Positions 43,408 to 51,818 are shown, numbered from the stretch's first letter. The stretch: 64,000 bases of DNA from Acidithiobacillus sp. (GCA_041676785.1 JBAYRF010000004.1:69584-133583); one strand, 5' to 3'. Program-made: numbers and translations. The notes: generated by a model from the letters alone, not told the origin.

Positions 43408-43462
43408 AAACGAAAAAACCCGCCAAAGTGTGCATCGTGGAGAGGCATGGCGGGTGTATTGC
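43408..43462 (-). ncRNA. Candidate abiF-type small RNA (hairpin + U-tract) upstream of the Abi gene
   Basis: Minus strand ACCCGCCA-tgcctctccacgatgcacactt-TGGCGGGT-TTTTT, ending about 18 nt before the Abi ATG. Confidence 0.65.
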
Positions 43463-50102: not shown

Positions 50103-50873
50103 ATGAAACGGTTCCTCATCCTTGCAGTATTAGCCATCCCGACAGTTGCCAGTGCGAATAGTCTAACTGCTGGACTGGATAACATTGGCGTTTACGGTCA
50201 GATCGTAGGCACTCCGACCACGCTTTCAGCGACCGTGCCAGGTTATGGTTCAGCAACCGCTTCAGGCGGAAATACCACGGGTGGCATCGGTGTCAGTGCA
50301 ACCGGTATCAATCGACAGCTATGGTTTATGCATTTGGGTTTTAACTACGCTTTTGGACCGGCCATAGATGGTGGTTCCGCGAAATTCACGAGTGCTGACG
50401 GCGTTTCTGAAAGCGGCAGCGGCTCGGCAAACGATCATGGCCACTCCCTGCAGTTCAACGCCCGATTGGGCAAAGCTTTTGAAGTCGCCCATAATGTCAT
50501 TGTTGGTCCCTATATCGGGTATCAGTACGCCAAGTTCTCTCTAGGCCTAGATGGTTATTCAGCAAGCTATGGAAACAATGCCTTCGGAGGTGGTGTATAC
50601 GCAGCCATGGCACCGACTAACCAGATTACGCTGAGTGGTCATATTGGTTATTTGGCGGGTGTTTCAGCAACGGCTACCGGCGCGACCCACACCCCTAGTT
50701 CTGACGTCTTGCAGGTCGGTGCAAAAGCAGATTATCGCTTTGATCCGAACTGGAGCGGTTTTATTGGCGTGGATTACGATAGATATTCAGCCTCTGATCA
50801 AGTAAATGCATCGGTTGGTAGCGTGCACATCAATGATGTGCGTGGCTTGGTAGGCATGGCGTACCACTATTAA
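50103..50873 (+). CDS. Putative outer-membrane beta-barrel protein
   Basis: Signal peptide (MKRFLIL...ASA), alternating hydrophobic beta-strands, C-terminal aromatic GMAYHY. Confidence 0.7.
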   Translation: MKRFLILAVLAIPTVASANSLTAGLDNIGVYGQIVGTPTTLSATVPGYGSATASGGNTTGGIGVSATGINRQLWFMHLGFNYAFGPAIDGGSAKFTSADGVSESGSGSANDHGHSLQFNARLGKAFEVAHNVIVGPYIGYQYAKFSLGLDGYSASYGNNAFGGGVYAAMAPTNQITLSGHIGYLAGVSATATGATHTPSSDVLQVGAKADYRFDPNWSGFIGVDYDRYSASDQVNASVGSVHINDVRGLVGMAYHY

Positions 50874-50878
50874 CCACT

Positions 50879-51090
50879 CTAGTGTTCTAATCTTCGACAC
50901 ATGGTGCTAGTCATACCTTCAAGGCGGATCACCGCCCCGTCAGTCATGCGGATATTTTTATGCCCAGAATTCGTCTGGGCTTATGCTCTCCAATGGCCGG
51001 GGAGGGATCGAAATACAACACCGAAAGGGAATACGATCCGGTGCTCCTTGAACACTGACTAGCCCCTGGCCGCCTGAGTTATTCAGGCAC
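50879..51090 (+). ncRNA. Phage/satellite immunity-type structured RNA leader (C4/CI-like) with upstream complementary targets
   Basis: Nested stems GGCCGGGG/CCCTGGCC and GGATCG/CGATCC with a GAAA loop; bulge CCTTGAA-cac-TGACTAGC complementary to upstream GCTAGTCA-tacc-TTCAAGG. Confidence 0.6.
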
Positions 51091-51109
51091 TTAAACAGAG
51101 GGCTTAATC

Positions 51110-51347
51110 ATGGAACAGAAAATCGTAACCGAAAATATGACGCTATGGGATGCAGTACGGGCCGAGCGCAACGCACTAGGAGATTATCGCGGTATTATTG
51201 CCGACGATAAACACTATATCGCGCCACCTACCGACGAATGGAAAGAATACCGCAGCACCCGTATCGCCAAAGCTGGATGCGGAACTTCAGGAAGGCCAAA
51301 AGGCAAAAATAAAGGCCCAAGCGAAATGCTCAAGCCTTTGATTTTAT
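51110..51347 (+). pseudogene. Truncated hypothetical ORF behind the RNA leader; reads into the tRNA-Pro end
   Basis: ATG at 51110 after GAGGG; the frame continues into antisense tRNA sequence, so the true 3' end is lost or unclear. Confidence 0.4.
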
Positions 51348-51424
51348 TGGTCGGGGCGATAGGATTCGAACCTACGACATCCTGCTCCCAAAGCAGGCGC
51401 GCTACCAAGCTGCGCTACGCCCCG
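51348..51424 (-). tRNA. tRNA-Pro(TGG)
   Basis: CGGGGCGTAGCGCAGCTTGGTAGCGCG, CCTGC-TTTGGGA-GCAGG, GTTCGAATC, CCA. Confidence 0.97.
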
Positions 51425-51458
51425 TCGCCGCAGAGAATAGCCTCTCGCCCCTCTGCGG

Positions 51459-51818
51459 TCAATCTAAACGAGAGAGTTTGCGACGCAGGCGATCCAGCTC
51501 GCTGCGAGCAAGCGCTATACCGTCGTTCAAACGCTGACGTTCCTTGTCGCTGAGCTCCCTACCTTTTTGCACGAGCTCTTCACTGTATATGGCGATGGTA
51601 TCCAGTAATTCTTCGACGCGCTCATTCATGTGCTCTCGCGAGGTAACGACTCGATCCCATGCGCGGTTTGCTTGATGGCGTAACTGTTCGCGAGTGCGTT
51701 CACCCGTTTGTGGTGCAAATAGTAGTGCTGCAACGGCACCTGCCGCCGCACCGGCCAGCAAAGCGGCACCTAAGGCGCTATAACCGATACTGCGGTCGTT
51801 ATCGTCGTAATCCATCAT
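51459..51818 (-). CDS. YtxH-domain protein
   Basis: GAAAGAVAALLFAPQTGERTR motif plus coiled tail. Confidence 0.85.
   Translation of the reverse strand: MMDYDDNDRSIGYSALGAALLAGAAAGAVAALLFAPQTGERTREQLRHQANRAWDRVVTSREHMNERVEELLDTIAIYSEELVQKGRELSDKERQRLNDGIALARSELDRLRRKLSRLD

Follow-up and report, generated by a model that had tools for sequence, protein, structure and literature searches.

A probable relic of a tRNA-Pro island in Acidithiobacillus sp. carries a c4-like RNA of the sRNA-Xcc1 type that is complementary to its own leader

Immunity of P4 depends on CI, an RNA processed from a leader, whose single box pairs with seqA, upstream, and with seqC, downstream, and which terminates transcription. 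CI RNA, seqA, and seqC have been described (PMC4825925). So has IsrK of Gifsy-1, a terminated leader: when transcription reads through, processing releases an RNA complementary to it, and a cis helix between leader and downstream region holds the mRNA in an inactive form (PMC4825925). Among the sites described for c4 RNA are a1/b1 and a2/b2 (PMC2864571), and the annotated P1 record gives, in order, the P1c4 promoter, a1, b1, the c4 RNA (77 nt), a2, b2, icd, and ant1/2. In Rfam, these elements are represented by C4 (RF01695) and c4-a1b1 (RF03163), clan CL00128, and by isrK (RF01394). Another small RNA, sRNA-Xcc1 (RF02221), is catalogued as an orphan and discussed as a virulence-linked trans regulator; it has been located ahead of symE in Xanthomonas cassettes and ahead of an ORF6N gene in APSE phages, and its type member is a discrete RNA of about 88 nt on Northern blots, with mapped ends (PMC2996969). 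Here, we analyze a related element in a 64,000-nt stretch of DNA from Acidithiobacillus sp. (GCA_041676785.1 JBAYRF010000004.1:69584-133583), called the window throughout. Positions 50887-51266 of the window are probably the surviving control cassette, in a relic copy, of a phage-derived integrative island that once occupied tRNA-Pro, and we consider an island relic with a self-addressed c4-like RNA and its leader the likely best explanation of the locus as a whole.

A permissive Rfam scan of positions 50700-51450 matched 50995-51079 on the plus strand to sRNA-Xcc1 along model positions 1-87 (52.2 bits, E = 2.3e-8). The original prediction, made from the window sequence, had proposed a C4/CI-like RNA at this place, possibly an unlisted variant. 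The cmscan search instead puts the RNA in a catalogued family along the full model, while C4, c4-a1b1, isrK, and likewise c4-2 gave no match at E <= 10 in the scanned region; on the plus strand of leader and RNA, sRNA-Xcc1 is the sole Rfam family to reach that threshold. A default gathering scan misses the window RNA because its score lies below the RF02221 cut-off, a curated gathering score of 53 bits. Relatives' loci score 49 to 67 bits against the model, and homologues that can be aligned at 74-85% DNA identity score 49.4 to 61.5 bits. The RNA, its two boxes, their upstream complements, and the hairpin that follows are listed here.

50906-50913, plus strand: a1 box, GCTAGTCA, complementary to a', with four of eight pairs compensatory
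50918-50924, plus strand: b1 box, TTCAAGG, complementary to b', with five of seven pairs compensatory; its terminal GG is common to the next hairpin
50995-51074, plus strand: C4-like small RNA, sRNA-Xcc1 family, by RF02221 match and a minimum free energy (MFE) fold equal to the Rfam consensus
51046-51052, plus strand: b' box, CCUUGAA, in the second-hairpin loop, assigned by exact complement and covariation
51056-51063, plus strand: a' box, UGACUAGC, in the 3' junction ahead of the closing stem, assigned by exact complement and covariation
51072-51088, plus strand: conserved hairpin GCCUGA/UCAGGC, directly 3' of the RNA

Folded in isolation, the 80-mer at 50995-51074 has an MFE structure that is closed by a stem of 8 bp and contains two hairpins, the first long and GAAA-looped, the second short; the second loop holds part of b', and a' is unpaired in the 3' junction. 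The window RNA thereby has the consensus fold of the family (a closing stem of about 9 bp around one long and then one short hairpin), together with the first-hairpin core of that consensus, AAUACAA, a GNRA-type loop, and GGGAAUA. The outer stem GGCCGGGG (50995-51002)/CCCTGGCC (51064-51071) and the inner stem GGATCG/CGATCC are where they had first been drawn, and the three extra hairpins proposed at 50923-50936, 50962-50980, and 51072-51088 are present as well. Alignment and RNAalifold revealed that the RNA stems are maintained across nine homologues. Because G-U pairs are kept in the closing stem (one such pair is retained in 8/9 homologues) and in the following hairpin at 51072-51088 (one compensatory pair plus G-C to G-U changes), the coding strand of the RNA is fixed. 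By analogy with c4, the ends are predicted to fall after AAU on the 5' side and after the closing stem plus GCC on the 3' side; hints of the RNase P type, namely an AU/GG boundary and an acceptor-like stem plus GCC, are found in the sequence as in c4.

Further evidence comes from the pairing between the RNA and its leader. As originally noticed, the reverse complement of CCTTGAA-cac-TGACTAGC (51046-51063) occurs exactly, in blocks of 7 + 8 nt, as TTCAAGG and the a1 box. When the 24-nt 3' segment was compared with the 121 nt upstream, a collinear two-block complement of 15 nt was reached in 0/5000 dinucleotide-preserving shuffles (mean, 5; maximum, 14). Covariation was then assessed in nine close homologues, aligned with MAFFT from the transcription start region to the start codon, by counting the pairs of a specified structure. 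Both sides have changed in four of the eight a1:a' pairs, with 97% of cells paired, and in five of the seven b1:b' pairs, with 100% of cells paired, so that 9/15 inter-box pairs are compensatory in total, the kind of change that the original prediction had made its touchstone. For the whole named structure, the observed covariation was reached by 0/500 shuffles, and a slide of the 3' partners by a single column lowered pairing from 91.5% to below 50%. Two additional pairings claimed for the same segment fared differently. AGTGTTC (50881-50887) precedes the conserved -10 and falls outside the stretch that is homologous to relatives and probably transcribed, and GTCAGT (50939-50944) lies inside an invariant terminator-like hairpin and is complementary to the RNA only in the address type of the window and in the relative G007; of the four pairings claimed, these two look fortuitous.

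The same tests bear on two further explanations. Together the two blocks make up an imperfect inverted repeat with a separation of 121 bp, as would suit a DNA-level feature (a recombination site or a transposon end) or plain chance. The shuffles and compensatory changes speak against both, and the G-U pairs occur on one strand only, the promoter, U-run, and ribosome site are strand specific, and a covariance model of an RNA family matches the locus; we regard this explanation as scarcely credible. It is also very improbable, although less so, that the element encodes a trans-acting small RNA with chromosomal host targets. That function has been proposed for sRNA-Xcc1 and for the Xylella sXF RNAs, with published target predictions and HrpG/HrpX control in Xanthomonas (PMC2996969, PMC12189769). 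However, no part of the RNA varies more than the exposed segments, and these covary with boxes a few dozen nucleotides away on the same transcript, and within the 64-kb window its own leader is the sole bipartite match for a' and b'.

The window belongs to a clade of 10 members (the window, G007, two copies in G006, G024, G041, G043, G044, and two metagenome contigs). Unlike the boxes, the leader hairpins and the U-run hardly vary in this clade, and the same is true of most RNA stems. The element is a constant scaffold with a variable, self-complementary address that differs between elements. The duplex formed by the address alone reaches -20.4 kcal/mol with the cognate leader versus a mean of -9.2 kcal/mol with non-cognate leaders. 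Cognate values lie at about -18 to -20 kcal/mol in 8/9 clade members scored, and non-cognate values lie at -8 to -12 kcal/mol; the G024 duplex reaches -12.1 kcal/mol only, and its a1 box is mismatched.

Individual relatives illustrate how addresses differ. G006 carries two co-resident islands (L014 and L022) whose a' boxes are one base apart, each change being offset in its own a1, with address pairs UUUUGAGC/GCUCAAAA versus UUUUCAGC/GCUGAAAA and identical b boxes; this looks like a heteroimmune pair in the making, comparable to P1 and P7. The G024 locus (L018/L162), which is syntenic with the window (tRNA-Pro, then YtxH), has an a1 of GCUAGUAA that mismatches its own a' (UUUUCAGC), while b1 and b' match, and it may be a recombinant of two address types. 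G060 has at least five copies (L017, L024, L026, L027, and L028), among which the boxes look shuffled: L026 and L028 each have a b' (UUAUGUAC and UUAUCUAC, respectively) that fits the b1 of the other, and L024 is mismatched in both boxes. The leaders of the G060 copies lack a U-run.

A broader view of the family comes from 96 unique loci in IMG/VR viral contigs, which were retrieved by a pattern of the conserved sRNA-Xcc1 core. The same 6-mer of the RNA 3' half is complementary to both flanks in 79/96 loci, compared with 62/477 non-cognate pairings. The open reading frames (ORFs) downstream fall largely (63/82) within one BLAST-linked cluster, whose sub-cluster representatives include P22_AR_N, Rha, KilA-N with P22_AR_C, ORF6N, and AntA/AntB; a singleton representative is Bro-N. 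For instance, Escherichia phage PPwrbA_EC3734 (LC645450; L163 2466-2710) carries an unannotated sRNA-Xcc1 scoring 69.3 bits in the order consensus promoter, a1/b1, terminator, sRNA-Xcc1, and a2/b2; of the last two, b2 lies on the ribosome site of an Ant gene (PHROG 377). This leader is shared by about 30 lambdoid E. coli phage records, none with a feature annotated there, and the same layout occurs at loci in G035, G025, and several metagenome contigs. In most phage-borne members, then, sequence comparison has shown further copies of the boxes on the ribosome site of a gene of the antirepressor type, the arrangement by which c4 would repress translation, and this supports a view of the sRNA-Xcc1 family as a putative c4-like lock.

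Other searches extended the set to varying degrees. A genome-contig scan with the pattern CCGCCCCGTCAGNNNNGCGG was over-general and gave only chance matches in GC-rich genomes, and a viral-contig scan with AGCCCYTGGCCGCCNG, over-general too, gave 119 matches, none of them real; a more specific leader pattern gave 11 useful loci. Also, two pairs of loci in viral and metagenome contigs (L148/L152 and L150/L155) share one leader, consisting of a GGCGG hairpin, a CCCGTCAG hairpin, and a U-run, and they have a clear a1/b1 plus a2/b2 logic. L150 and L152 have no Rfam match at E <= 1 in a permissive scan, and these loci appear to represent an uncatalogued c4-like scaffold.

The clade of the window differs from its relatives in its targets. 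Neither box is copied within 1.5 kb downstream in 10/10 clade members, the window copy included, so a downstream target on or near the ORF ribosome site is absent. In terms of classes, 10/10 clade members are up-only and 8/8 sister loci carry both targets; among the viral contigs, up-only loci number 4/96 at k = 6. The downstream region of the window pairs with the address at -6.4 kcal/mol versus -8.3 kcal/mol for non-cognate pairings, i.e., no better. Three clade members retain a b2-like CUAGAGG, with one mismatch, on the ribosome site, which suggests a secondary loss of the downstream target. The genes downstream in the clade are small ORFs of 74-154 amino acids with no Pfam or PHROG match.

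Upstream of the RNA, the leader comprises a promoter remnant and a series of hairpins, given here one per line.

50883-50893, plus strand: promoter remnant, with the conserved -10 region CTAATCT at 50887-50893 and the -35 missing
50903-50917, plus strand: first leader hairpin, GGUG/UACC, with the a1 box in its loop, from RNAalifold on nine homologues and single-sequence folds
50923-50936, plus strand: leader hairpin H1, GGCGG-AUCA-CCGCC, from folds, with a stem invariant in the clade
50937-50961, plus strand: terminator-like hairpin CCG-U-CA/UG-CGG (50937-50951) followed by the U-run ATATTTTTAT, invariant in the clade and folded in all homologues
50962-50980, plus strand: spacer hairpin between the U-run and the RNA, present in every homologue with a different sequence each time

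Homologues have TTGAC(A/C/G) 16-17 nt upstream of CTAATCT. This -35 element is common to all relatives, and in the window its place is taken by the end of an unrelated outer membrane protein (OMP) gene. A consensus promoter scan found none on the plus strand at the window element. The window -10 is preceded by TGT, which gives TGT-TCTAAT at the break, and from this sequence we infer a putative extended -10-like element of the TGn type (TGTTCTAAT). The terminator-like element is not called by a simple terminator scan because its stem is bulged, and the counted pairing of the spacer hairpin is low because the MAFFT register is poor there. A switch between H1 and the terminator, as an antiterminator model would have it, was considered and set aside: ViennaRNA folds both hairpins side by side, and the model is unsupported by folding because blocking a1/b1 leaves the terminator hairpin unchanged.

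How the element might act can be outlined by analogy. The leader, of about 65 nt, would present a1 in the loop of the first hairpin and b1 next to it, followed by a GC hairpin and a short terminator hairpin with its U-run. An RNA of about 80 nt would be excised from the read-through transcript, possibly by RNase P as for c4, and in this clade it would act at the leader only, with no second target. By one route, the RNA would pair with the leader in cis or in trans and decide the fate of the transcript through termination or conformation, as P4 CI and Gifsy-1 IsrK do; by another, the terminated short leader would titrate the RNA. Whatever goes beyond conserved, covarying pairing is inferred from c4 (RNase P processing and antisense action), P4 CI (a target in the leader, and termination), and IsrK (a short terminated leader, a cis helix with the downstream RNA, and trans competition). 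It is conceivable, if rather doubtful, that the clade's RNA forms a self-addressed attenuator or decoy circuit on leader read-through, with relics persisting by blocking the re-entry of islands that have the same address.

Several observations weigh against a self-addressed, c4-like cassette. The RF02221 score of the window RNA is 0.8 bit short of the curated cut-off, and the C4, c4-a1b1, and isrK models are silent over the scanned region. An nhmmer profile built from 18 leaders scored the P1 leader at 6.6 bits (E = 6), which is not significant, and the background set of this search was biased by the earlier pattern. The clade lacks a2/b2, and its downstream ORFs lack known function, so that any regulatory output would be putative. 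The leader hairpins never vary, and so leader structure, terminator, and any switch are predicted only. For the organism, a landfill metagenome-assembled genome, one doubtful RNA run was found. Finally, the covariation is compatible with cis as well as trans pairing, and the MFE fold of the whole leader (241 nt) forms the a1b1:a'b' helix in cis (z = -3.4).

Because the complete leader folds in this manner, a purely cis two-state leader is a serious rival, if an unlikely one. Here, the a1b1:a'b' helix would alternate with the C4-like fold and set termination or ribosome access, and no RNA would be released or act in trans. Such a leader would suit a clade without a downstream target, some folds allow pairing between the ribosome site and invariant GCC/GGCC segments, and the equivalent cis helix of Gifsy-1 locks its mRNA in an inactive state (PMC4825925). 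However, a discrete RNA of 88 nt has been demonstrated for the type member (PMC2996969), and most family members have a second box copy on a ribosome site, which is sensible only for pairing that is intermolecular or follows processing. Also, the acceptor-like stem, the RCC tail, and the AU/GG boundary match those of the RNase P-processed c4 RNA.

Comparison with relatives indicates how little of the former island remains. The downstream parts of the locus are as follows.

51097-51266, plus strand: ribosome site AGAGGG (51097-51102) plus ~52 initial codons of a 154-amino-acid gene, a cut-off remnant, with identity to G007 ending at 51266
51267-51347, no strand assigned: junction and tRNA-Pro terminator, the latter on the minus strand at 51311-51339 with a T-run (terminator scan)
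51348-51424, minus strand: tRNA-Pro (UGG), the integration site of related islands; the G006 island is flanked by a 61-nt repeat of its 3' part

Homology to relatives starts at 50884-50887. G007 is 85% identical to the window at the DNA level, but only across 50887-51266, and the two G006 copies and one G024 copy are 74-75% identical to the window element. Beyond the junction, 51301-51896 matches the tRNA-Pro flank of G006 at 81% identity. In that relative, a 15-kb island with genes for a tyrosine integrase, an AAA_25 protein, a tail-lysozyme protein, and the C4-like module lies between an intact tRNA-Pro and the 61-nt repeat, which adjoins the tyrosine integrase (arm-binding domain). The second G006 island has Toprim and D5-like primase genes and a small terminase gene, and primase/helicase genes are thus among those of the G006 islands. 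In several relatives the module is one or two genes away from the tRNA. The satellite or prophage origin first proposed for this tRNA end is supported by relatives, in which the module occupies the end nearest the tRNA in integrative islands derived from phages.

ORF 51110 is in the window a cut-off stump, neither an antirepressor nor a kil gene. The ORF has no Pfam or PHROG match, and a search of 1.84 billion representatives at E <= 0.001 yielded four matches: the ORF itself, one true homologue (P0004), a tRNA-flank artefact (P0003), and one repeat protein. Intact homologues of 154 amino acids are present in G007 and P0004. The 147-amino-acid ORF at 51110-51553 is itself an artefact: its first 52 codons are real, and the frame then runs on through the tRNA-Pro terminator and along the antisense strand of tRNA-Pro; it is called as a gene in another assembly of the same organism too (L165), and P0003 is a similar spurious ORF elsewhere. 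In the window copy, the proposed shut-off of a downstream gene cannot apply because ORF 51110 is reduced to a stump joined to the tRNA flank. The cassette is orphaned here since its -35 is lost and its cargo ORF is cut after ~52 codons; the window copy regulates no intact gene and at most still makes an orphan address RNA and leader.

A stricter possibility, which we place somewhat short of an even chance, is that the copy is a dead fossil: the cassette is no longer transcribed, and its intact complementarity reflects recent deletion, not selection. The lost -35, the negative plus-strand promoter scan, the truncated cargo ORF, and the lack of a second att repeat anywhere in the 64-kb window all fit this account. 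However, the RNA stems and both boxes are perfectly intact, the putative TGn extended -10-like element adjoins the break, and read-through could come from the OMP gene, which ends 14 nt upstream.

We also asked what else in the window might belong to the island. The upstream genes (OMP, YgjP, TspO, and umuDC) were considered as island cargo and rejected, as they have no BLASTP similarity to the island genes of G006, G007, and G024. Among the ORFs of 130 amino acids or more at 37-46.5 kb, which were listed and not family-scanned, none stood out as integrase-sized. Elsewhere in the window, Rfam abiF RNA matches 43418-43454 on the minus strand (47.3 bits) within a type I restriction-modification/Abi region.

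Chiefly, the window element is the fossil of an RNA switch of a known type, a 380-bp scar that marks a lost tRNA-Pro island and explains a spurious 147-amino-acid gene call through the tRNA. Because its clade keeps the upstream boxes only, the long-unclear role of a1/b1 becomes directly testable without the confounding presence of a2/b2. As for the original prediction of a C4/CI-like switch, the C4-type module, with the order and spacing of P1 immI, and the covarying upstream pairing have held up, and the unlisted status, two of the four pairings, and the shut-off of a gene have not.

The likeness to P1 immI is one of layout. As in P1, the window has a promoter, a1 in a hairpin loop, b1, a GCGG/CCGC hairpin, a weak terminator with a U-run, a spacer hairpin, and the RNA; b1 is separated from the RNA by 66 nt in P1 and 70 nt in the window, and the RNA is 77 nt in both (stem to stem in the window). 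P1 has GCGG-ACAA-CCGC at the place equivalent to H1, which in the window overlaps the end of b1. The RNAs themselves agree in the closing stem, the tetraloop hairpin, the placement of b' (second-hairpin loop) and of a' (3' junction), the RCC tail (ACC in P1, GCC in the window), and AU/GG at the 5' end. Nevertheless, the window lacks a match to the C4 and c4-a1b1 models (which, run on P1 as a control, give 68.8 and 51 bits, respectively), a2/b2, and icd/ant; its copy is cut short, and its first hairpin has a different conserved core, AAUACAA...GAAA...GGGAAUA. Relatedness to C4 rests on architecture rather than sequence statistics because the models do not cross-hit and the leader profile reaches 6.6 bits. 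By that analogy the module is built like c4 and would work like c4, yet it is not a member of RF01695.

Second, Gifsy-1 IsrK and STnc1160 of Salmonella share with the window a short leader that ends at a terminator-type hairpin (Rho-independent in Gifsy-1, putative in the window) and a complementary RNA further 3'. The window differs in having no isrK model match and other downstream genes, and an activating short leader has been shown for Gifsy-1 only. The isrK model also aligns to the a1b1 hairpins, weak terminator, and U-run of the P1 leader (L164 231-312; NC_005856 48230-48311), at 35 bits against a cut-off of 50, and from this alignment IsrK-type small RNAs and c4 a1b1 leaders look like one class of terminated leader.

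Third, the element resembles P4 CI in that the RNA derives from the leader of the operon concerned, with processing in the window presumed by analogy, and in having one target upstream of the RNA gene. The carriers are P4-like too: islands of relatives have primase/helicase genes, tRNA sites, and a tyrosine integrase with an Arm-DNA-bind_3 domain, which we take to be a P4-type combination. The differences are that the window clade has two boxes and an upstream target only, and that no sequence or model similarity to CI was found.

The closest relative by sequence model is sRNA-Xcc1 itself, which is hosted by Xanthomonas campestris integron cassettes, APSE and other prophages, and Xylella islands, and which the window RNA resembles in its full-length model match, its consensus fold, and its position ahead of a gene in a mobile element. 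In contrast to the published view of a trans-acting, virulence-linked regulator, the exposed segments in the window and in the 96 phage contigs are variable addresses directed to flanking boxes of the same transcript. This places the family beside P1 c4, P4 CI, and Gifsy-1 IsrK as a putative RNA immunity lock with many natural, mutually orthogonal specificities.

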